From an uncultured Anaerolineaceae bacterium (GTDB taxonomy: Bacteria > Chloroflexota > Anaerolineae > Anaerolineales > UBA4823), in contig CAZTMX010000001.1 of assembly GCA_964614855.1 (NCBI GenBank), positions 1-54,186 on the forward strand: a stretch of 54,186 nucleotides of DNA. The letters are read 5' to 3'. The notes beneath the pieces were generated by a model that saw nothing but the letters and a program-made list of their open reading frames with translations, ran no database searches and was not told the origin of the DNA. Positions 1 through 53,758 of this stretch are shown here, in pieces. The position numbers were made by a program, and so were the translations under genes. Positions within the stretch are counted from its first letter, which is position 1. Every line of letters starts with the position of its first letter.

Positions 1-1293
1 GCCTCCACACCGCTTACACTGGCGTACTGTGATGAGATCAGGCAGCACGCAGCTTACACCTGGGGGGCAGCCGCGGTGATCCAAATCATGGAAGCTCTGC
101 TGCCCGATTGGCCGCCGGATAAAAACTTGCAAGGGATGGTGTATCCTCCAGAGGCAAAAGATGAATGGTTGTACCGCCTTGGGATTGCCTATGCCTTGAC
201 GGGTGATCGGGAAGGGTCTTTAAAGCACTTTAACCAGATCATCCAAACACCCAGTGTGCCGCGTTCCAGCTGGATCGCTCCTGCACAGGATTTCCTGGAT
301 CATTACACTTCCGACCAGGATATCTATCGCGCATGCGTGTTGACCACTTACTGCCAGCCTGCAGAAGCCTTGCAAACGCTTGTTCGATTTCTACCGCCAG
401 GTCAGGAGATCCTTCCTTATCTATGGGATACAGGGGTTTCGGTCACGGCTTCTGGTTATTTCGATTTTGATCAGGATGGGGAAAGCGAACGATGGATCGA
501 TGTGCGCCACCGCACCCGAGAAAAACCTGAGTTCTGGATCCTGGCTGCCCACCCTGGCGGTTTCGATGCGTTACGCATCGACCAGGTGAATGCAAACCCG
601 CCGTCCATTGAGATCCTGGATGAAGCTTTCATTGCAGAAAGCTCGCTGCATTTACAGCCTGCAATTTTCCTGGACGGCTCCCTGGCTTTTCATATGCAGC
701 GGCTGCCGCGGTCGGAAGTCCCATACATTACACCGGTTGCTTTGCGCGATGTGTACCCGGACCGTTACCTGGCGGTGTTCCACCGTCTACAAAAAGCCTT
801 GTTTGATGGCGAACCCCCAAAGTCTGTGATGAAGGATTTGCAAGCCCTGGCAGTCTACCCGGGATTGCTGTGTAAGAATACCTGGAGCTGCGATCCCTAC
901 TACTACATGCTAGGCTTAGCCAGCGAACTGGCAGGTGACACGCGCGCGGCTGTGGATGCCTATCACAAGTTGTGGTCGGATTATTCCAAAAGCCCGTACA
1001 CTATCATGGCGCGTATCAAGCTGATGGGGAGCGCTTTGCAGACCCTGACACCTACGCCAACCTATACCCCGACCACAACCGTGACGCCAGAACCGAGCCT
1101 GACACCCACCCTCACAGTAACCGGTACACCACCGACAAGCACACCCACGCCAACATTGACCTACACGCCTGATCCTAACGCCACACCGACGGAGACGCCC
1201 ACCTTGACACCCACTGTAACCTCCACACTCAACCTGACTGAGACACCGACCATCACACCCAGCCCAACAGGTACAATTACTACCACTCCTTGA
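1..1293 (+). CDS. Hypothetical helical-repeat protein with C-terminal Thr/Pro-rich tail (5' end probably outside the window)
   Basis: ORF track gives 76..1293. The same frame stays open back to nt 1, so the gene likely starts upstream. The last ~83 aa are TPT/TPE low complexity. No catalytic motif recognised. Confidence 0.55.
   Translation, partial: ASTPLTLAYCDEIRQHAAYTWGAAAVIQIMEALLPDWPPDKNLQGMVYPPEAKDEWLYRLGIAYALTGDREGSLKHFNQIIQTPSVPRSSWIAPAQDFLDHYTSDQDIYRACVLTTYCQPAEALQTLVRFLPPGQEILPYLWDTGVSVTASGYFDFDQDGESERWIDVRHRTREKPEFWILAAHPGGFDALRIDQVNANPPSIEILDEAFIAESSLHLQPAIFLDGSLAFHMQRLPRSEVPYITPVALRDVYPDRYLAVFHRLQKALFDGEPPKSVMKDLQALAVYPGLLCKNTWSCDPYYYMLGLASELAGDTRAAVDAYHKLWSDYSKSPYTIMARIKLMGSALQTLTPTPTYTPTTTVTPEPSLTPTLTVTGTPPTSTPTPTLTYTPDPNATPTETPTLTPTVTSTLNLTETPTITPSPTGTITTTP
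1042..1290 (+). repeat. Coding low-complexity Thr/Pro-rich repeat (linker/tail)
   Basis: Translation reads TLTPTPTYTPTTTVTPEPSLTPTLTVTGTPPTSTPTPTLTYTP..., with imperfect ACN/CCN codon periodicity. Confidence 0.8.
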
Positions 1294-43375: not shown

Positions 43376-43494
43376 ATTTTTAATTAACCTTGTCATATGA
43401 AGCTTTATACTCATCATCTCTTTTTTGATCAGCTCTTTGTGTGCCTGGCAGATTTGCCAATCCAACCTGGTACCCGTTCAGGAGGCATCCAACT

Positions 43495-44871
43495 GTGGAA
43501 ATCCGTGATGAATTGACCGCCCTGGCGCGGCAGATGCTGGAGCGCAGGGAAAAAGAGGCCCAGCCGCTGATCCTCTTCCTGGGGCGCGGCTGTGCAGATG
43601 CCGCCGGCGTACCCGGCAGCATCGAAATCGCCCGCCAGTTGTTTCGCGATAACGACCTGGCGCGCCAGTACCTTGAGCCTGCAGGTGATGCATCTGACGA
43701 ACAGGCGCTGCTGCACGCATTCAATGAGTTTGTGGCGGATATGACCCCCGGCCAGCGCCACCGTATGCTGCAGTCTTTCTATGCCGGGCTGCCGGTGCCC
43801 GCCTTTTACCAGGACCTGGCGCTGTTGATTAAAGCCGGGTTCTTCCGCCGTGTGCTCACCACCAGCATCGATGCCCTGCTAGAACAGGCGCTCAACGGTG
43901 CAGGCCTGTATATCGATAAGGATTACCAGGTGATCAGCCTGGGCAGCGCGCAGAAAACCCAGCCTCCACGAGATTACCAGCAGACTGCCTTTAGGATCAG
44001 CATCCTCAAGCTGCACGGCGACCTGGCAGCGCAGCAGACCTACCTTACACCGGAAGAAATCCTGGATGCCCTGGAGCCGCAGCGTGCCTTTATCAAGGGC
44101 GAGCTTTCCGGCGACCTGGTGATGGCGGGCTACGAGTTCGAAAGCGAGCCGCTAAACACCTGGCTGAACCGTGTGCCCGGGCAGCTTTGGTGGGTGAACC
44201 CGGAACCCCTGGACCCGACACATATTGCCCGGCTCCAGGATGTGCGCAGCCTGCGCATCATATCCGGCAGCCAGGCTTATCCCGAAGAGTTTTTCGGCCA
44301 GCTGGTATACCTGCTGCTGCGCCGACCGCTCAAGACCTCGCTTTCAGCCGAGCCGATCCAGGCGTATTCACAGGCGCAGCAAGGTCTGAGCGATGTCGAT
44401 CAGCTTTTGGAAAGCCTGGAGGAGAGCGACTTCTCTGATACGGATTACCTCAAGGACCAGTTGTACCGCAGCCGGGCGCTGCTGCAAAGCCTGCAGCAAT
44501 CCTCCGCCCCGGGGGAACGCAACCTGCAGCTGCAGGCGCAGATCGATTACCAGCGCCAGCGTGTGACCGAGCTGGAAGACCAGCTGCGCAGCCTGGACGG
44601 CACCCGGCGGCATGTGCTGCAGCTGCTGCGCGAAATGCAGCAGGAGGTCGCCAAGGCCAGCACAGACCCTAACCAGGTCGCCTTTTTCCAGAGCCAGGTG
44701 CGCGCCATCCGCCGGGAATACCGGCGCGAGACACCCGACCAGACCATCATTTCAGCAGCCATCAGCGCCACGCTGATCCTGGTGGAGCGGCTGGGCGCAG
44801 AAAACATCGATCCGCAGCTGCTGCAAGAGCTGGCAGCTTTTGCACCCAGTACGCTGAGCCGGAGGTCGTGA
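43495..44871 (+). CDS. SIR2-like (SIR2_2-type) domain protein with C-terminal coiled-coil-like tail
   Basis: The ordered motifs are LILFLGRGCADAAGVPG (GxG NAD loop), VLTTSIDALLE (TQNID/TTNYD-equivalent), ILKLHGDL (catalytic His, nt 44014..44016) and LVMAGYEFESEP. The last ~170 aa are a Q/L/R/E-rich helical tail. GTG 43495 follows AGGAGG (43480..43485) after 9 nt. The track start GTG 43441 lacks an SD. Confidence 0.8.
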   Translation: MEIRDELTALARQMLERREKEAQPLILFLGRGCADAAGVPGSIEIARQLFRDNDLARQYLEPAGDASDEQALLHAFNEFVADMTPGQRHRMLQSFYAGLPVPAFYQDLALLIKAGFFRRVLTTSIDALLEQALNGAGLYIDKDYQVISLGSAQKTQPPRDYQQTAFRISILKLHGDLAAQQTYLTPEEILDALEPQRAFIKGELSGDLVMAGYEFESEPLNTWLNRVPGQLWWVNPEPLDPTHIARLQDVRSLRIISGSQAYPEEFFGQLVYLLLRRPLKTSLSAEPIQAYSQAQQGLSDVDQLLESLEESDFSDTDYLKDQLYRSRALLQSLQQSSAPGERNLQLQAQIDYQRQRVTELEDQLRSLDGTRRHVLQLLREMQQEVAKASTDPNQVAFFQSQVRAIRREYRRETPDQTIISAAISATLILVERLGAENIDPQLLQELAAFAPSTLSRRS

Positions 44872-46004
44872 TGGCACAGGTGATTTCGCTGATGGTGCTG
44901 CCAACCGGCTCGGCTGAAGCGCTGCCGCAAATCCTGATGGAGCGCTCGGGTTTGTGGCGCGATATGTCGCCCTCGCTGGATATCCGCCTGTCCGTGCGCT
45001 CGCAGGCGCTGCGCGAAAACATGGACACCCTGCTGGGTGAGCTGATGGCGCAGATGGAGCACAACGCCCACCCCAGCCTGGCGGTTTTGAAAGCAGCCTT
45101 CAAAGGACATTACCGGGTGATCGTCCCAGCAGGCGTGCAGCAGGCGCTGGCAGATGCCTTGAGCCAATCCGCCCCCGGCACCCCGCCGCTGCTCAAGCTG
45201 CACATCCACCCGGCCGCGGAGTGGATCCCCTGGGAGCTGCTGCACGATGGCAAGGATTTCCTGGGGTTAAATTTCCAGATCGCCCGCCTGCCCATCTTAC
45301 CCAACAGCCCTGATCTTTCCTTTTATGAACCGCGCCGCGTCGACCAGGTGTGCAGCCTGCTGGCAAAAAACGCCTTTGATGAACCCTTGGCGCCCCAGCT
45401 TGAGCAAGCCTGGCAGGAGACCTTTTCTGGGCTGCTGCCGTCAGGCGTCCAGCTCACCCGTTACCCTGGCGAAGGCGCGCCAGCCCCAGGATATCCCAAT
45501 GTGGAGGACCTGATCCGGGCGGGCAGCAGCAGTGATATCCTGCACATCACCTGCCACGGCCACCTGCAGGACAGGTTCGACAGGTATTTTTGGTCGCTAG
45601 ACCACCTGAGCCCGCTGATCTATGATTACAAGATCAATGCTGCGCTTGTAAGCGATCTGCCGTTGGCGCAAAACCCGCTTGTTTTTGGCAATGCCTGCGG
45701 TTCGCCAGCAGCTGCGGCTGCAGACAGCAGCGGGATGCTTTCACCCGGGTTTGGCTCGCTGTTCTTCGCCCAGGGTGCGGTCGGGTTTATTGGAACCTTT
45801 GCGCCCATCACCCAGGCGCTGGCGGCGCCTTTTGCGCGTAAATTTTATGAATACTTGCTGGCTGAGGGGCTGCCGCTGGGGCGCGCCTTGCTGGCAGCCA
45901 AACGCTATTTTGCCGAAAATGGGGAAGCCGATCCGTCTTTTCTGTATTACTGCCTGTACGGACCGGCTGAAACCAGCTTTTACGCCGCGCCAGAGGACGG
46001 TTAA
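44871..46004 (+). CDS. CHAT-domain (caspase-fold) protease
   Basis: EWIPWELL, DILHITCHGH (His-Gly, His codon 45555..45557), PLVFGNACGS (Cys codon 45696..45698), AQGAVGFIGTFAPI and LYYCLYGP follow the CHAT pattern in order. ATG 44871 shares one nucleotide with the upstream TGA, and GGAGG lies 5 nt upstream. Confidence 0.85.
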   Translation: MAQVISLMVLPTGSAEALPQILMERSGLWRDMSPSLDIRLSVRSQALRENMDTLLGELMAQMEHNAHPSLAVLKAAFKGHYRVIVPAGVQQALADALSQSAPGTPPLLKLHIHPAAEWIPWELLHDGKDFLGLNFQIARLPILPNSPDLSFYEPRRVDQVCSLLAKNAFDEPLAPQLEQAWQETFSGLLPSGVQLTRYPGEGAPAPGYPNVEDLIRAGSSSDILHITCHGHLQDRFDRYFWSLDHLSPLIYDYKINAALVSDLPLAQNPLVFGNACGSPAAAAADSSGMLSPGFGSLFFAQGAVGFIGTFAPITQALAAPFARKFYEYLLAEGLPLGRALLAAKRYFAENGEADPSFLYYCLYGPAETSFYAAPEDG

Positions 46005-47676: not shown

Positions 47677-49548
47677 TTATTCTGTGTGTTTTCGCAGCCA
47701 GGCGATGGCGCCCTTGGTCTGCCACCAGGCGTAGAAATAATCGCTGGCGTAGTGGCGCGCTTCACCGTCTTCATCCAGGTCCGTATCCTCGGCGTCGATA
47801 TCGGGCAGCAGGCGCCTGCCGGTCAGGTATTCCGGCGCCAGGGCGTTACACTGCAGGGCAACTTTGAGGGCGCTGCAGGCTTGCGGGCTGTCGCCGCTTT
47901 TGCGGAAGGCGAGCAGGGCGCGCGTATAGGGCCAGCCGGCGTATTCTTCATCGGCATAGCGCTCCAACAGCCCGGCAGCTTCTTCATCCTGGCCAAGCTT
48001 CATATAAATATACAGCAGGGCATAACGGGCGCCCTGGTGATCAGCCGGGTTCAAATGCAGGAGCTCACGGTAATGCCCCAGCGCCTGGTCATAGGCTTCC
48101 ATTTCCACCAGGCATTCTGCAACCCCCTGGCGGGCGACCAGATACGGGCGCGCCACCGGCAGGTCCCACAGGTGCCCGCTGTGCTGTTCAAACAGCTCCG
48201 GCGCCAGGTATTTTTCACCGGCGTGCATCCCACGCTCAAAGTATGCCAGCGCTTCTTCGACGCTTTCGGCCTCTTCGCCCAGAACCACCAGGGCGCGTAT
48301 GCAGCCGTCAAAGTAATCCAGTGCTTCTTTCGCCAGCAGCACCCGTTCTTCGGGGTCATCTGTCTCCCAGGAGCGGCGTGAAAGCTCCAGGGCGATCTTA
48401 ACCCGGGGATCATCCGGCAGGCGCAGCCAGTGCAGCATATGCTGGCCCTCGGGGGTGGCCAGCTCGCCGTCTTGATCCAGCGCCAGCGCCTCTTGTGCGA
48501 TCTCCTGGGGGTCATCCTGTGCGAAATCGCCTGCGAGCCTGTCAGTGTCCTTGCTTGCAGGGTAGCGCACCTGGACACACAGCTCACCCAATGGGGTGGG
48601 GATGGTGTATTCGGCTGTTGCCGGGGTGTAGTCCTCCGCTTCTTCATCAGGGGCCAGCCCAGAGACAAAGCGAGCGATGGCCTGCAAACAGGCGCCCAGC
48701 CGGTTGAGCTGCTCAGGGCTGGGGCGCAGGATTTCGTCTTGCGTATAGATAACAGGAACGGGATAGGCCTGCTGGTGTGCGACCGGCCAGCCGAATTGCT
48801 GGATGGCTTCCAGGTCAGCCGAAGGCACGGCTTCGGGCGGTTCGTAGCTGAGCATTTTCAGCCCCTGCTCGGGCAGAATCTCCAGCGGCTGGGTGGTTTG
48901 CGCAGCGACCTGGACCAGCTCCTGCCAGCTGTCGAAGAATAGCAAGCCGTACTGGATGCCGGCTTTGCCCATCAGGATGACGTACAAATCCTTCCCCGGC
49001 GGCTCTACATGCAGCGCCAGGGGTTGGGTGTCATCCAGCCTGTCCCAAACAGCCTGGCGGTAGAAATCTGCCGCTACGGCGTAGAAATGGGCTGCACTCT
49101 CCACGCTGATCCCTTCGATCTCCAACAGACCCAGCACCGAGGGCTGCGGTTTCTCATAGTCCATCAACCCCTGGATAAAAACCTGGTCGGCCAGCTCGTG
49201 ACGGGCGATCGTGCTTGCAGCGATGCCTGCCTGGGCCAGGGATGGCGCCAGCAGTGCATACATTTTTTTGGTTTCGAATTCTACTGCTGCCGGGCGGTGA
49301 GGTCTCGGGCTGCTGAGCGGGTAGATCATGTTTTCCGCCAAGAAATCCAGTATGTCTTCACCGGTGGGTGGCGTGTAGAAGGGTTGGCTGTCGAGCAGCT
49401 TACTGCCTTCTACATCAGCCAGCAGCAATAAGTATGGTGCGGTCTCACCGGAGGCGGTTTGTGTTTGGCGCAGAATCAAATACCAGGTATCTTGCTCCTG
49501 CGGCAACGCGAGCACTTCTGGGTGGATGCGCGGGCTTTTGCGTTTCAA
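47677..49548 (-). CDS. Hypothetical 623-aa protein with C-terminal TPR-like helical repeats
   Basis: TTG start with GGAGG 5 nt upstream. The C-terminal ~230 aa have TPR-like periodicity (AYDQALGHYRELLHLNP, GARYALLYIYMKLGQDEEA). No catalytic motif was recognised in the N-terminal ~360 aa. Confidence 0.6.
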   Translation of the reverse strand: MKRKSPRIHPEVLALPQEQDTWYLILRQTQTASGETAPYLLLLADVEGSKLLDSQPFYTPPTGEDILDFLAENMIYPLSSPRPHRPAAVEFETKKMYALLAPSLAQAGIAASTIARHELADQVFIQGLMDYEKPQPSVLGLLEIEGISVESAAHFYAVAADFYRQAVWDRLDDTQPLALHVEPPGKDLYVILMGKAGIQYGLLFFDSWQELVQVAAQTTQPLEILPEQGLKMLSYEPPEAVPSADLEAIQQFGWPVAHQQAYPVPVIYTQDEILRPSPEQLNRLGACLQAIARFVSGLAPDEEAEDYTPATAEYTIPTPLGELCVQVRYPASKDTDRLAGDFAQDDPQEIAQEALALDQDGELATPEGQHMLHWLRLPDDPRVKIALELSRRSWETDDPEERVLLAKEALDYFDGCIRALVVLGEEAESVEEALAYFERGMHAGEKYLAPELFEQHSGHLWDLPVARPYLVARQGVAECLVEMEAYDQALGHYRELLHLNPADHQGARYALLYIYMKLGQDEEAAGLLERYADEEYAGWPYTRALLAFRKSGDSPQACSALKVALQCNALAPEYLTGRRLLPDIDAEDTDLDEDGEARHYASDYFYAWWQTKGAIAWLRKHTE

Positions 49549-49688: not shown

Positions 49689-50594
49689 ATGAGTGTACGT
49701 TGCTGGCTGTACAACGGAAATGAGTTAAAACAATTGGATCTGGGGCAGGTGGACAGCCTGGACGCCTCGACAGCGCTGATCCCTGGCGGGGCATACACCA
49801 CGTTTCGCACCTTCCAGGGCACCAAGACACTCTTACTCGAAGACCATTTCCTGCGCCTGGAGGAGACCTCCCACCTGGCAGGCCAACCCGTGCAGATCGA
49901 GCGCCTGGCTGTGCGGGGGGCGTTGCGCCGGGTATTAGCTGAAGCCCAAAGGCTTTTCGCTGTAGATTCGGCGCCGGATGCCCAGGAGGAAACCCCCACA
50001 CAGCCTGGGATCCCCTCCTCCACCCCATTCGACCTGCGCCTGCGGATGACGCTGGATCTGGAACAGCGACCCGGCGAGCTGTACCTGGCAGCCGAGCCGC
50101 TGCACACCCCGCCGCAAGAAGCTTACGCACACGGTGTGCGGGTGGTGATCCGTAGAATGCAGCGCATCAACCCCAAGGCCAAGTTGACGCGTTTTATCCA
50201 GCGCTCGGACCCGGTGCGCCAGTCCCTGCCTGCGGGTGTCAACGAAGCCGTGATGGTCAACGAGCAGGATGAGCTGCTAGAAGGGCTGAGCAGCAATTTT
50301 TATGCGATCCTGTATGGAGAGATTTGGACAGCGGAAGCAGGCGTGCTATCGGGGATCACACGCAGCATGGTCATCGAATGCGCCCGCCGGCTGGATATCC
50401 CGATGCGCTACCAGCCCGCCAGGTTGAGCGATGTGCCTCGCATACAGGAAGCCTTTATCACCTCTGCCAGCCGGGCGGTGCTGCCGCTGTGCCAGATAGA
50501 GGATACGACCTTGCCGCAGACACCCGGCGCGCTGACCCGCCGCCTGATGCAGGCTTATGTGGGTCTGTTGGAAGAAAGATTGGAAAAGATTTAA
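49689..50594 (+). CDS. Aminotransferase class IV family protein (BCAT / aminodeoxychorismate-lyase-like)
   Basis: The fold-type IV pattern includes FRTFQG, EGLSSNFY and VLSGITRSMVIE. SD GGAGGAG upstream. Confidence 0.8.
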   Translation: MSVRCWLYNGNELKQLDLGQVDSLDASTALIPGGAYTTFRTFQGTKTLLLEDHFLRLEETSHLAGQPVQIERLAVRGALRRVLAEAQRLFAVDSAPDAQEETPTQPGIPSSTPFDLRLRMTLDLEQRPGELYLAAEPLHTPPQEAYAHGVRVVIRRMQRINPKAKLTRFIQRSDPVRQSLPAGVNEAVMVNEQDELLEGLSSNFYAILYGEIWTAEAGVLSGITRSMVIECARRLDIPMRYQPARLSDVPRIQEAFITSASRAVLPLCQIEDTTLPQTPGALTRRLMQAYVGLLEERLEKI

Positions 50595-53587
50595 GCTGCG
50601 GTACAGGCGCGCAGCGCCTTGCGTGCCACCTCTAACAAAGTTTCCGTGCGGTCCCCATCATTGGGGTACATCCCGGTGCCGCAAGAAAGCCCCAGCTTGA
50701 TTTCCTTGCCTGCGCACACAAAGGGTGTCTGGAATTGCTCCGCCAGCCTGCCGGTGATGATCTCCAGCGCCTTGGCATGCGGCAGCCTTTCAATGATCAC
50801 CCCAAATTCGTTTTCCCCCAGGCGTGCCAGGAAATCATCCTGGCGTAAGTTCCGGTGGATGCGCCCGGCAGCTTTTTGGATGCACTGGTGGTAAATTTCC
50901 TTGCCCGCGCTTTTTTCCAGGTTCGCCAGCCCCTGGATCTGCATGATCAAGAGGCCAAATTGCTCCACCCGGCTTGAGGCATCCGAAATGGCTTTGCTCA
51001 GGTTTCCTGAGAATACCTGGCCTTCCGGCAGCCCGGTCAGGTGATCCACCGGCGCCGTCGATCTCCCCCGCTGGGCTTCAAAATCCACCTTTTTCACCAG
51101 CACCAGGTTGTGGTTGCCTGCCAGGGGGCGGACAGGCAGCGAGAGGGCTTCGATAGCGATCAGCGCGCCGGAGTGGTGCTGGATATGGGTTTCCGAGATT
51201 GGCGAAGCCTGCCAGTTTTGCCGGGTGTAATCCAGGCTGAAATTCTGCAAATTCATCCCCAGCATGATCCCCAGCGGCAAACCGCTGAGCTGCTGCGCCT
51301 GGTAATTGGCGGCTTTGATCTGGCCTTCGCCGTCCACCAGGAACATGGCATTGTTTGCATCCACCAGGCGGTACACGTGTGGGCAACCAGTGCCGTATCT
51401 CTCGCAGCCCTGGCGGGAGAAGCTGTCCAGGAAGCGCAGCTGCGGTCCAGCCGGTTGGGCCGCAGGATGCTGTGCAGCTGATAGCTGGGCGGCAGGGTGT
51501 TGGGCAGCAGGGTGTTGGGCAGCTGGGAGCTGGATCTTTTCCGGTTGGGTCTGGTAGGTGCGCCGGTAATGCTGGAAATCCTCCACCGCCTGCTGCACCA
51601 GGTTCGCCTCGTCTATCCAAAACGCCCAATCCAGGGCATAATCGATATTCTCCAGCTCTTCATCAATGGCGAATAGCAGCTGTCCTGGCGAGCGGCTGGT
51701 TGGAAGCAGGGATACTTTCTGGTGCAAATACTCCAGGTAGTGGTTGCCAAAAATCTCTTGCAGCGCGGATTTTACCTCTTTTTGGCTGGCCAGGCGCTCC
51801 ATGGCGAATTGGCGAATTAGGGGTTTAAAGGCATAGCGCCCGTATCCCAGGCGCACCAGCAGCGATTGGTCGCTGAAGAAAGTCAGCGTATCCTGGCTGG
51901 TATGGCAAATTTGCTCGGCAGCCTGGGGGGTAAAACTGCAAGGAAATATCGAGAGCGACTCGAGCTGTCTTTGGTATGGGTCATCCAGCGCTTCCCACAC
52001 GCTGGTCAGAATTTTCTTCATACTCCGCTGGCGAGCGGGTACATCATGCAAGGAAGTAGAAAGCACCACCAGGTCCTTATGCAGCGAATCGACGATGTTG
52101 GGCAGCGAGAGCTCGTGCAGCCGGTCGGCAGCCAGCTCCAGCGCCAGCGGGATGCCGTCCACCGCCTGGCACAGCTCCAGCACGTAAAACAGCCAGGAGG
52201 GGTTCTGCGTGAGGTCCTGGCGGCTGTGGCGGGCGCGCTTTAGAAACAGCTGGACTGCTGGCGATTTGAGCGCCTGGCTGTCGCTCGGGTCCAACGGGTA
52301 AGGCAGCCCTTCCAGGGTCAGCGGGTTTGCAGCCAGCAGGTTTAGGCGCTGGCGCGAAGTGACGATGATCTTGATATGCAGCGCATTTTGCAGCAGATCC
52401 ATCAGCAGGTGGGTGGAATTGTGCATCTCGTCGAACTGGTCGACAAGCAGGATGCAGCGCTTGCTTTCCAGGAAGCGCCCGATCTGCATCCTTGGATTGG
52501 CCAAGCTGATGGTCAGCCCCAGCGAGCGCGCCAGCGCCGGGTAGAACAGCTCCTCGGAGTGCACGCCGTCCAGGGAGAGATAGTACAGACCGTCCTGGAA
52601 TTCTTTCACCTGGCGTTGGGCGGCTTCGATCGCCAGGCGCGATTTGCCCACGCCCGGCAGGCCGTTGATCGAGATCAGTTGGCAGCTTGGGTTGGCGAGG
52701 CAGCGCGCCAGGTAGTCCAGCTCGTCTTCCCGGCCGATAAATTCGGTCATCGGGCGGGGCAAGCCGTCCGGCGCCTGGATTTCGCCTTCATCGCCGAGGA
52801 TGACCGGTTTGCCCAGGCGGATGCGCTCGTACAACCCAACGGTCTCCGCCGAGGGTTCCACGCCCAGTTCCTGCTGCAGCATGCGCACACACAGCTGGTA
52901 TTGTTCCAGCGCGGCAGAGCGGCGCCCGCTGAGCGCCAGCAGCTCCATCAAGCGCCGGTAAGCCTGTTCTTCCAGCGGGGCATGCTTGACATACAACCAG
53001 GCGTATTTTTGCATCGTCTCCCAGTCGCCCTGGGTTTTGTAGATCTCGCTCAGGTGGTCGAGGATTTCCAGCAGGTAGCGTTTAAATTGCTCGCGATGGA
53101 AAAAAGCCCATTCCTGGAAGGACTGGCTGTTCTCCACGTACAGCCCGGTCAGGAAATCCTGGCGGTAGAGATCCACTGCTTCTTGCAGCTGCTGGGCGCA
53201 GGTGGGGCAGGTATCCAGGTTCTTGTGATCGTGGACGCTGTTGGCTTGCAGATGCGCTTTGAAGGTATCGGCATCCACCCAATAAGAGGCCTTTGGGTTG
53301 AGCTGGATGGATTCATCGCTGACCAGCAGCAAGGGTTGTGAAGTACGCCGGTCTTCGATGGCATTGCGCACCCCCAACAGCGCCTGGCGCAGGTTGGCGC
53401 GGCTCATGATTTCAGGGCGGTCGGGCCAGAACATTTCTGCCAGCAGCTCGCGACTGATGGGGCGTTTGGCTTCCATCACCAGGTACGCCAACAGGGCGCG
53501 CTCTTTATCGGTGCGAAATTTGCGCGTGATAGATTGGTTGTCCAGGTTTACCTGGAAATCGCCGAGCAAAAAAAAGGATAATCTCAC
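50591..53587 (-). CDS. Multidomain regulator: SARP/BTAD winged-helix + NB-ARC (STAND) ATPase + helical region + PAS-like + degenerate GGDEF
   Basis: The gene has a GTG start. The N-terminal FFLLGDFQV...ERALLAYL, together with the BTAD helices, is SARP-like. The P-loop is GLPGVGKS (nt 52640..52663) and Walker B is ILLVDQFD. PAS-like sequence: LVDANNAMFLVDGEGQIKAAN. The C-terminal DHLTGLP...RQDDFLARLGENEFGVII is GGDEF-like. Confidence 0.85.
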   Translation of the reverse strand: MRLSFFLLGDFQVNLDNQSITRKFRTDKERALLAYLVMEAKRPISRELLAEMFWPDRPEIMSRANLRQALLGVRNAIEDRRTSQPLLLVSDESIQLNPKASYWVDADTFKAHLQANSVHDHKNLDTCPTCAQQLQEAVDLYRQDFLTGLYVENSQSFQEWAFFHREQFKRYLLEILDHLSEIYKTQGDWETMQKYAWLYVKHAPLEEQAYRRLMELLALSGRRSAALEQYQLCVRMLQQELGVEPSAETVGLYERIRLGKPVILGDEGEIQAPDGLPRPMTEFIGREDELDYLARCLANPSCQLISINGLPGVGKSRLAIEAAQRQVKEFQDGLYYLSLDGVHSEELFYPALARSLGLTISLANPRMQIGRFLESKRCILLVDQFDEMHNSTHLLMDLLQNALHIKIIVTSRQRLNLLAANPLTLEGLPYPLDPSDSQALKSPAVQLFLKRARHSRQDLTQNPSWLFYVLELCQAVDGIPLALELAADRLHELSLPNIVDSLHKDLVVLSTSLHDVPARQRSMKKILTSVWEALDDPYQRQLESLSIFPCSFTPQAAEQICHTSQDTLTFFSDQSLLVRLGYGRYAFKPLIRQFAMERLASQKEVKSALQEIFGNHYLEYLHQKVSLLPTSRSPGQLLFAIDEELENIDYALDWAFWIDEANLVQQAVEDFQHYRRTYQTQPEKIQLPAAQHPAAQHPAAQLSAAQHPAAQPAGPQLRFLDSFSRQGCERYGTGCPHVYRLVDANNAMFLVDGEGQIKAANYQAQQLSGLPLGIMLGMNLQNFSLDYTRQNWQASPISETHIQHHSGALIAIEALSLPVRPLAGNHNLVLVKKVDFEAQRGRSTAPVDHLTGLPEGQVFSGNLSKAISDASSRVEQFGLLIMQIQGLANLEKSAGKEIYHQCIQKAAGRIHRNLRQDDFLARLGENEFGVIIERLPHAKALEIITGRLAEQFQTPFVCAGKEIKLGLSCGTGMYPNDGDRTETLLEVARKALRACTAA
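51449..51523 (-). repeat. Five tandem 15-nt coding repeats (AAQHP-type pentapeptides)
   Basis: Two perfect copies of AGGGTGTTGGGCAGC occupy 51494..51523, with three diverged copies upstream. Minus-strand translation reads AAQHP AAQHP AAQLS AAQHP AAQPA. Confidence 0.9.
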
Positions 53588-53758
53588 TGACGCCGCCCAG
53601 ATCCCTGTGAAAGAAAACTTAGAAATTGGTGAGTTTTTTCTGCAATATCACGCAAAAATCACGCTTTTATCTACGCATATATAACATCTCAATCACGCTT
53701 CCTGGTAATAATACCGTTAAATCGGAAGATTTGCAACTATTTATTGGGAAAGGCGACC

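Follow-up and report, generated by a model that had tools for sequence, protein, structure and literature searches.

AfsR of Streptomyces coelicolor (PDB 8K60, 8JKE and 8HVR) is one of the closest described systems to the regulator reported here. It joins an N-terminal winged helix-turn-helix (wHTH) and a BTAD domain to an NB-ARC nucleotide-binding oligomerization domain (NOD), and its C-terminal sensor consists of tetratricopeptide repeats (TPR). Both the NOD and the TPR of AfsR are autoinhibitory, and ATP promotes its activity (bioRxiv 10.64898/2026.09.02.748808). A 2024 review of the SARP family recognizes only small, medium, large (TPR) and SARP-LAL classes and has no SARP-GGDEF class (PMC10972967). 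Here we describe a 998-amino-acid regulator of the SARP type encoded near the end of contig CAZTMX010000001.1 of an uncultured Anaerolineaceae bacterium (Chloroflexota; assembly GCA_964614855.1). The whole contig of 54,186 nucleotides is called the window; it is the longest contig of the host assembly, which has 2.98 Mb in 270 contigs and is 89% complete. The most solid new result is a conserved cassette of regulator, operator and operon. As judged from comparative sequence data, the protein is probably an AfsR-like, NLR-type STAND activator of a cluster of small open reading frame (ORF), surface-protein and cytochrome genes, with a sensor made of a PAS domain and a dead GGDEF domain, and cyclic di-GMP (c-di-GMP) at the inhibitory site (I-site) is a guess at the ligand of the family.

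PelD, PopA and SgmT are c-di-GMP receptors with degenerate GGDEF domains that use the I-site. The regulator shares with them the loss of the active site (A-site), an RxxD five residues before the motif and a second basic residue (R947). However, their outputs are polysaccharide synthesis, proteolysis targeting or a histidine kinase, c-di-GMP binding by the regulator is putative, and none of the three is known to carry a STAND NTPase or a DNA-binding module of the SARP type. FleQ, VpsR, VpsT, BrlR, BldD and MrkH are c-di-GMP-responsive transcription factors. In the model proposed below the second messenger would likewise control a DNA-binding activator directly, and FleQ and VpsR also couple such control to a P-loop ATPase domain. 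These factors differ in taking up c-di-GMP through AAA+, receiver, MerR, PilZ or BldD-specific motifs and not through a GGDEF I-site, and we know of none with an NLR-type architecture. Staphylococcal GdpS is an orphan GGDEF protein in a genome without other c-di-GMP machinery. Like the regulator it holds the lone GGDEF domain of its genome, and its NCBIfam model matched the regulator weakly (E 0.006), but it is a membrane protein without SARP, NB-ARC or conserved I-site logic. Mycobacterial proteins of the Rv0386 type combine a class III cyclase with NB-ARC, TPR and LuxR domains (PMC2447327). They have in common with the regulator that a nucleotide-cyclase-fold domain, a STAND NTPase and a helix-turn-helix stand in one polypeptide; in contrast, their cyclase is class III, active and N-terminal, their DNA-binding domain is of the LuxR type and C-terminal, and TPR are present.

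With AfsR the regulator shares the N-terminal wHTH and BTAD, the NB-ARC NOD and, by prediction, 11-bp direct-repeat sites that replace the -35 element and a C-terminal region in the role of an autoinhibitory sensor. The two proteins differ after the NOD, where a helical arm, a PAS domain and a dead GGDEF domain take the place of the TPR. The TPR of the large SARP (AfsR) type is absent from the regulator: Pfam gave no TPR match, and AlphaFold2 (AF2) modelled only about four helices in this region, followed by a linker, PAS and GGDEF. They differ also in the host phylum (Chloroflexota for the regulator), in the operator (two boxes in AfsR, four to six in the family of the regulator) and in the targets (afsS and antibiotic clusters for AfsR, a predicted surface-protein and cytochrome operon for the regulator). 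The latch residue of the F/Y-H-D motif is His in AfsR and Lys in the regulator. The regulator scored 68 bits against the NCBIfam AfsR equivalog NF053617, whose cut-off is 1430, and is therefore not an AfsR orthologue.

Domain architecture and the C-terminal sensor

The regulator ORF (P0001) is the sole long frame in its interval and starts with GTG. Its N-terminus, VRLSFFLLGDFQV, aligns with the MARLSIYLLGxFQV start of the homologues, and the identical start was called in the sister-strain assembly (L045, GCA_040772025.1), which is 94% identical in nucleotides to the strain of the regulator. Pfam detected BTAD at residues 104-257 (84 bits), NB-ARC at residues 287-414 (27.5 bits, cut-off 23.5) and GGDEF at residues 847-994 (85 bits). 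Trans_reg_C matched residues 26-81 with 23.3 bits, slightly under its cut-off of 26.2, and PAS_8 and a cyclase-sensor model gave weak, sub-threshold matches at about residues 744-793 (PAS_8 E 0.012). The full-length AF2 model, made with 46 aligned sequences, had a mean predicted local distance difference test score (pLDDT) of 86, and the domain boundaries in Table 1 are those of this model. When the model was compared with the Protein Data Bank (PDB) using Foldseek, it matched the PAS-GGDEF structure of PA0861 (268 aligned columns over the PAS-GGDEF part), the SARP domain of AfsR (TM 0.74-0.76) and EmbR, and also plant NLRs (resistosomes), Apaf-1 and CED-4. The GGDEF domain superposed on solved isolated GGDEF domains with TM 0.85-0.93 and an rmsd of about 1.2 Å. 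A phmmer search of PDB sequences found AfsR (E 4e-13 over residues 5-596) and several cyclases. The SARP-family module, an OmpR-type winged helix followed by BTAD, is thus present in the regulator.

The initial annotation, made from the letters alone, had proposed the order OmpR-type wHTH, BTAD, NB-ARC, helical region, linker, PAS and GGDEF. Pfam, AF2 and Foldseek agreed with this order, and the profile search supported BTAD, NB-ARC and GGDEF, the three assignments on which the proposal depended. The position that it gave for the P-loop GLPGVGKS was exact, and the Walker B LLVDQFD, named without a position, was located (Table 1). Two of its labels need correction. The "pentapeptide-repeat linker" is a repeat, but it is a disordered, low-complexity PAAQH tandem repeat and not the Pfam pentapeptide-repeat fold; Tandem Repeats Finder (TRF) gave a period of 15 with 4.9 copies at 51454-51527, and the linker is 10 amino acids longer in the sister strain. 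"GGDEF-like" is right for the fold and conceals a thoroughly degenerate active site.

In the NOD, the STAND motifs are Walker A GLPGVGKS (309-316), D383 in Walker B, the sensor-1 T410-S411-R412 and G478-x-P480-L481. Walker A and B, TSR and GxPL are conserved across the 46-sequence alignment, in which D383 and G478-x-P480-L481 are invariant. Directly N-terminal to the PAS core (residues ~722-732, window ~51392-51424) lies a conserved Cys motif, G-C-ERYGTG-C-PH, a possible redox or cofactor site. In most relatives with a PAS domain the motif reads W-C-C-G-R-x-G.

The A-site motif of the GGDEF domain is GENEF (924-928) and not GG[DE]EF, the second Gly and the metal-binding D/E being gone. The metal-binding stretch hhhhDxDxFKxxN reads LIMQIQGLANL, in which both Asp residues of DxD (MQIQ) and also the FK..N stretch are lost, and the guanine-binding Asn of LPNR is replaced by Glu (LTGLPEGQVF; PEG instead of PNR). 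Loss of catalysis is visible directly from the sequence: with GENEF and without the DxD and the guanine-binding Asn, this domain cannot be a cyclase. The third slot of the motif is N in the regulator and Y in the sister strain, and such a difference between near-identical strains indicates that the position is unconstrained.

The RxxD of the I-site, in contrast to the A-site, is kept as RQDD (915-918), followed by five residues and then G924. We take this spacing to be that of PleD, and R947 presumably stands at the position equivalent to PleD R390. Among 27 aligned GGDEF-bearing relatives (33-50% identity), no residue of the domain was invariant except F859, R915, D918 and G970. RxxD was found in 27/27 proteins and 19/19 species loci, and position 947 was K or R in 27/27 proteins and 17/19 species loci. 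A canonical GGDEF together with DxD was found in only two of the 27 proteins (P0008 and P0009, LDVDDFK...GGDEF), and GG[DE]EF in 0/19 species loci. Because the invariance is centred on R915 and D918, the domain appears to occupy the sensor position of the STAND switch. This pattern fits an I-site receptor and not an enzyme, which would make the domain a c-di-GMP receptor by sequence definition. The ratios of nonsynonymous to synonymous substitution rates between the two strains were 0.14 for GGDEF, 0.11 for PAS, 0.04 for the NOD and 0.0 for SARP (small counts); by this measure the C-terminal domains are under purifying selection and are not decaying.

The SARP-NB-ARC-GGDEF architecture occurs in at least 27 protein clusters at 90% identity (among the best 120 matches) and in at least 19 species-level Chloroflexota genomes. 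The fusion had been called unusual in the initial annotation. This holds in so far as we found no description of SARP or BTAD with GGDEF in one protein, or of STAND with GGDEF and AfsR, in the searched literature; however, the architecture is recurrent, and the search for proteins that share it returned relatives, none of them characterized in that literature. The fusion entries, where annotated, are called "diguanylate cyclase" by machine annotation. Most members of the family have 750-800 amino acids and lack PAS, yet keep a GGDEF domain with the invariant RxxD. The SARP-NB-ARC scaffold is also found with TPR and with an HSP90-like C-terminus. The latter type comprises Chloroflexota proteins of about 1300 amino acids (P0020-P0022, P0028, P0030, P0032 and P0036) with an HSP90/HtpG-like C-terminus (PF00183, PF13589), machine-annotated as "molecular chaperone HtpG"; it represents another sensor swap.

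Two apparent variants of the architecture were rejected. In the same-genus genome G001 (CAWJHE010000008.1, MFD04716.bin.2.168) the gene seemed to be split into two adjacent ORFs, as a Rosetta-stone argument would require, but the split is a single frameshift inside the helical arm and the sequence of P0004 is continuous. The "short homologues" of 570-641 amino acids (P0006, P0007 and P0010) have out-of-frame tails and come from metagenome-assembled genomes (MAGs) with several frameshifts. In G001 the regulator, the choice-of-anchor O gene and other genes are frameshifted; the frameshifts are likely assembly errors and yield misleading "short" SARP-NB-ARC database entries.

The conserved cassette and its operator

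Divergently from the regulator gene lies a small ORF of 72 codons. It belongs to a family of proteins of about 70 amino acids with the core YxSYLLRxWRE..GEWRASLQ....F..L..L..FL, all homologues of which (63/63) are annotated "hypothetical". AF2 predicted a beta3-alpha fold, in which residues 11-52 have pLDDT values over 95; neither Pfam nor NCBIfam gave a matching family, and the best Foldseek match (E 0.67) was not significant. From species-representative genomes 36 regulator loci were retrieved with the alignment query, and the real relatives amount to about 31 Chloroflexota loci. A small-ORF homologue is divergent and just upstream of the regulator in 27 of these ~31, irrespective of the C-terminal domain of the regulator. 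Nearly every member of the small-protein family is encoded divergently from a SARP-STAND gene. The host genome has a second copy on contig C121 (L008), with 68% identity, beside a paralogous regulator fragment with 71% identity, and the orthologous locus of G001 has a copy with 53% identity. The C121 cassette also holds a choice-of-anchor O protein of 1154 amino acids, an FG-GAP protein and a multihaem cytochrome-like protein.

The gene after the small ORF encodes a protein of about 1150 amino acids with a signal peptide (NCBIfam choice-of-anchor O, 687 bits). The window ends within its first codons, and contig C184 is likely the continuation of this operon. In 20 loci the small ORF is followed by a choice-of-anchor O gene. 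Within the genus-level clade (L045, L046, G001 and C184), genes for FG-GAP, cytochrome b, Rieske, and mono- and multihaem c-type cytochromes come next. The initial annotation had named the small ORF as a possible target of the regulator, and the conserved synteny together with the operator described below strongly supports this prediction.

Heptamers of the form WTCACRY with exact 11-bp spacing were found upstream of the small ORF, in a divergent spacer that is 171 bp long at the window locus. G001 has five boxes, C121 four exact ones within a five-core TCAC register of 11 bp, and many other loci four. Of 24 loci, 16 had three or more TCAC cores in exact 11-bp phase and 10 had four or more; in 500 shuffles the mean was 0.004 loci with at least three phased cores, and the opposite strand gave 0. 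The last TCAC core stands exactly 14 nt ahead of NATAAT in 12 loci. The window was not in the scripted list; read by hand, its last TCAC (53693) has the same distance to AATAAT. No -35 element was found at the small-ORF promoter. ATCACGC with one mismatch is not enriched in the window (169 observed, 162 expected), whereas phased doublets numbered 6 genome-wide against 1.2 expected, three of them at the two cassette copies. The operator signal lies in the clustering and phasing of the heptamers and not in their total number. Described SARP sites are direct repeats of heptamers, classically in 11-bp units, that overlap the -35 element (PMC10972967). The arrays found here show the same features in silico, with 11-bp heptamer repeats in place of -35 and about 8 bp from the -10 element.

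On the opposite strand, a sigma-70-like promoter of the regulator, TTGCAA-17-TATTAT, is conserved in about 10 loci. Its position would place the boxes inside the transcribed leader of the regulator, and with the boxes there and the two -10 hexamers overlapping, occupancy of the array should also shut off regulator transcription. This suggests a promoter switch or negative autoregulation. Rfam gave no match in the spacer or leader. On contig C152 (~520-680, minus strand) six 11-bp-phased TTCRCA boxes are followed after 7 nt by TATACT; this array precedes a gene for a secreted Gln/Gly-rich protein beside another cytochrome b/Rieske pair, and is probably the operator of another SARP of the same genome, e.g. 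one on C229.

Table 1. Features of the regulator locus in the window (promoters and operator are predictions).
Feature	Residues	Position	Strand	Evidence and remarks
Regulator gene, GTG start	998 aa	50591..53587	-	SARP (wHTH+BTAD), NB-ARC, helical arm, linker, PAS, degenerate GGDEF
OmpR-type winged-helix DNA-binding domain	1-104	53276..53587	-	Trans_reg_C; AF2; Foldseek (AfsR, EmbR)
BTAD helical domain	105-258	52814..53275	-	Pfam
NB-ARC/STAND NOD	287-600	51788..52729	-	Walker A 52640-52663; Walker B 52430-52450; TSR sensor-1; GxPL; K588 at MHD-like site
Helical arm after the NOD winged helix	603-680	51548..51781	-	AF2
Disordered linker with PAAQH tandem repeats	688-744	51356..51526	-	TRF; AF2; strain comparison; Cys motif before PAS
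PAS domain	745-835	51083..51355	-	AF2 (five-stranded fold); Foldseek; weak Pfam PAS_8; strong PAS Pfam matches in homologues
GGDEF-fold domain, catalytically degenerate	845-998	50594..51055	-	GENEF 50804-50818; I-site RQDD 50834-50845; R947 kept
SARP-box-like heptamer array, ATCACGC		53647..53698	+	Exact copies at 53647, 53658 and 53692; degenerate slots between; spacing ~11 bp
Predicted small-ORF -10 hexamer, AATAAT		53707..53712	+	Begins 14 nt downstream of the T that opens the last TCAC core
Regulator promoter, TTGCAA-17-TATTAT		53708..53736	-	Sigma-70-like; -10 overlaps the small-ORF -10 on the opposite strand
Divergent small ORF, conserved uncharacterized family	72 aa	53759..53977	+	Core YxSYLLRxWRE..GEWRASLQ; predicted beta3-alpha fold
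Choice-of-anchor O surface protein, start with signal peptide	first 25 codons	54110..54186	+	Ends with the contig; likely continues on C184, complete in L045

Proposed mechanism and alternative explanations

In the mechanism that we favour, the SARP module would bind the 11-bp-phased WTCACRY array, which would stand in for -35. Between the end of the last heptamer and the -10 AATAAT lie 7-8 nt, and the bound protein would bring RNA polymerase to the small-ORF promoter. The small ORF is the head of a co-directional cluster for choice-of-anchor O, FG-GAP, cytochrome b, Rieske, and mono- and multihaem c-type cytochromes. Activation of this operon would be coupled to negative autoregulation of the regulator. 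By analogy with AfsR and MalT, the NOD would cycle between an ADP-bound closed form and an ATP-bound open, oligomeric form. The C-terminal module, with PAS and GGDEF in place of the usual TPR sensor, would keep the NOD closed until the signal permits ADP/ATP exchange and oligomerization, as in AfsR. Several SARP modules could then fill the four to six boxes of a promoter without -35. The best guess at the signal of the family is c-di-GMP at the I-site (R915-x-x-D918 and R947), either activating or modulating; in the long forms PAS would add another input, possibly a redox one.

Several observations weigh against this mechanism. The MHD-like latch position of the NOD is K588-P589 and not His. 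The latch His is present in 14 of the 27 GGDEF-type members and in 30/46 of the whole family, and the closest relatives of the regulator carry K/R/Q there; with Lys in place of His, the latch may work differently in the regulator. The array of the window is imperfect: it has three exact heptamers, and a shift of 1 nt takes the proximal copy out of the register of the distal pair. That the cytochrome genes are transcribed together with the small ORF is an assumption drawn from their common orientation and conserved order. AF2 confidence for the PAS domain is moderate (pLDDT 56-86), and all organisms that carry real relatives are uncultured MAGs (Chloroflexota or Anaerolineae).

A further objection concerns the signal. 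The host assembly contains exactly one GGDEF domain, the regulator's own. EAL, HD_5 (HD-GYP), PilZ and other GGDEF domains were not found in this 89%-complete assembly, and tblastn of the assembly with six diverse GGDEF queries gave nothing beyond the regulator. In 30 relatives the number of GGDEF domains ranged from 0 to 22 and was mostly 5-13, with best matches of about 140-180 bits. G001 has three canonical GGDEF genes. Two of them (884 and 966 amino acids) are cleanly missing in the host between conserved neighbours, which are adjacent on contiguous contigs (C23, 16376/16391; C137, 4850/4691), and the third lies in a non-syntenic block. Since cyclase genes are missing at intact syntenic sites, the absence appears to be partly real and not an assembly gap, although the rest of the C121 paralogue is also missing, i.e. 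the assembly is incomplete. With the cyclases absent, an endogenous c-di-GMP signal is doubtful in the host. The initial annotation had described the protein as wired to c-di-GMP signalling; without c-di-GMP machinery in the genome this cannot be asserted for the host. Its proposal that a second messenger controls a STAND switch is plausible at the level of the family, in which RxxD is universal, while the host assembly shows no c-di-GMP synthase, phosphodiesterase or PilZ domain. The I-site of the host protein may be a vestige or may respond to another ligand, and the working sensor may be PAS.

The alternative that survives best goes one step further: PAS and the Cys motif would form the only input, for instance for redox state, O2 or a small metabolite connected with the cytochrome operon; the dead GGDEF domain would be a dimerization or autoinhibitory scaffold, and c-di-GMP would play no role in the host. 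The missing c-di-GMP proteins, with the gene absences verified by synteny, favour it, as do the cytochrome b, Rieske and multihaem cytochromes of the likely regulon, the conserved Cys motif directly ahead of PAS and the purifying selection on PAS. Most members of the family, however, lack PAS and still have a GGDEF domain with an invariant RxxD, a scaffold is not expected to fix exactly two I-site residues while A-site residues drift, and the host genome is merely 89% complete. We therefore regard PAS-only sensing as possible but rather unlikely.

It is far less probable that the degenerate A-site still binds GTP and so lets the STAND switch sense the GTP of the cell. In the orthologue clade the motif is GE[DNR][DE]F, and P0004 and G001 keep LDVD and GEDEF, which we take to be the variant of Caulobacter PdeA (CC3396), whose GEDEF domain binds GTP. 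In the regulator, though, the Mg ligands and the guanine-binding Asn are gone, and A-site residues are not conserved across the family. A STAND-gated diguanylate cyclase, in which NOD oligomerization would unite GGDEF domains to make c-di-GMP, had been offered in the initial annotation and is contradicted by the A-site of the regulator (GENEF, MQIQ, loss of FK..N and PEG for PNR). The fold is intact and the distant P0008 and P0009 retain the catalytic residues, but a motif slot that varies between near-identical strains and the lack of a canonical motif in any of the 19 species loci make this highly improbable. We give the least credence of all to an anti-phage NLR/Avs-like defence protein instead of a dedicated transcription factor, for which the likeness of the NB-ARC STAND core to plant NLRs and a SIR2+CHAT gene pair 5 kb away would speak, since no PADLOC model matches the regulator, its N-terminal effector is a DNA-binding SARP module, operon synteny and operator are conserved across many genomes, and the intervening genes are housekeeping genes (fumarase, aminotransferase).

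Two neighbouring loci of the window were also noted. Overlapping genes for a SIR2_2 protein (476 amino acids) and a CHAT protease (378 amino acids) lie at 43441-46004 (plus strand) and are kept in the sister strain; the SIR2 protein matches the PADLOC candidate system PDC-S65 (E 1.7e-10), and the two genes may be a defence pair. A 623-amino-acid protein with DUF7309, DUF6930 and TPR_19 is encoded at 47677-49548 (minus strand), between the fumarase and aminotransferase genes.

Meaning for the family and the host

The AfsR-like activator with a PAS and dead-GGDEF sensor may be part of something wider. On a bolder and doubtful extension, the family would be a Chloroflexota-wide class of NLR-like switches with one operator and regulon and with swapped sensors (TPR, dead GGDEF, PAS with dead GGDEF, or HSP90-like); in the GGDEF versions c-di-GMP at the I-site would open the STAND NTPase, and the host receptor would listen to c-di-GMP or a related dinucleotide that the host does not make itself. 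The regulon of small protein, surface protein, FG-GAP protein and bc-type and multihaem cytochromes is possibly an extracellular electron-transfer or surface-remodelling module.

We know of almost no characterized transcription factors in Chloroflexota; for one regulator of this phylum, the sequence comparisons predict its operator, its regulon and a pair of overlapping promoters. They also point to an annotation problem, as dozens of "diguanylate cyclase" entries are almost certainly not cyclases. An evolutionary puzzle is posed by a GGDEF receptor domain that is under purifying selection in a genome seemingly stripped of c-di-GMP metabolism. The signal of AfsR-type regulators is still unknown even for AfsR, and the regulator holds at the sensor position a domain with a well-understood ligand pocket. 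It offers a candidate ligand for a STAND transcription factor and a case in which the opening of a bacterial NLR-like transcription switch by a small molecule can be studied. If c-di-GMP does open the STAND NTPase in the GGDEF versions, bacteria would have a first NLR-type transcription factor whose small-molecule trigger can be named.

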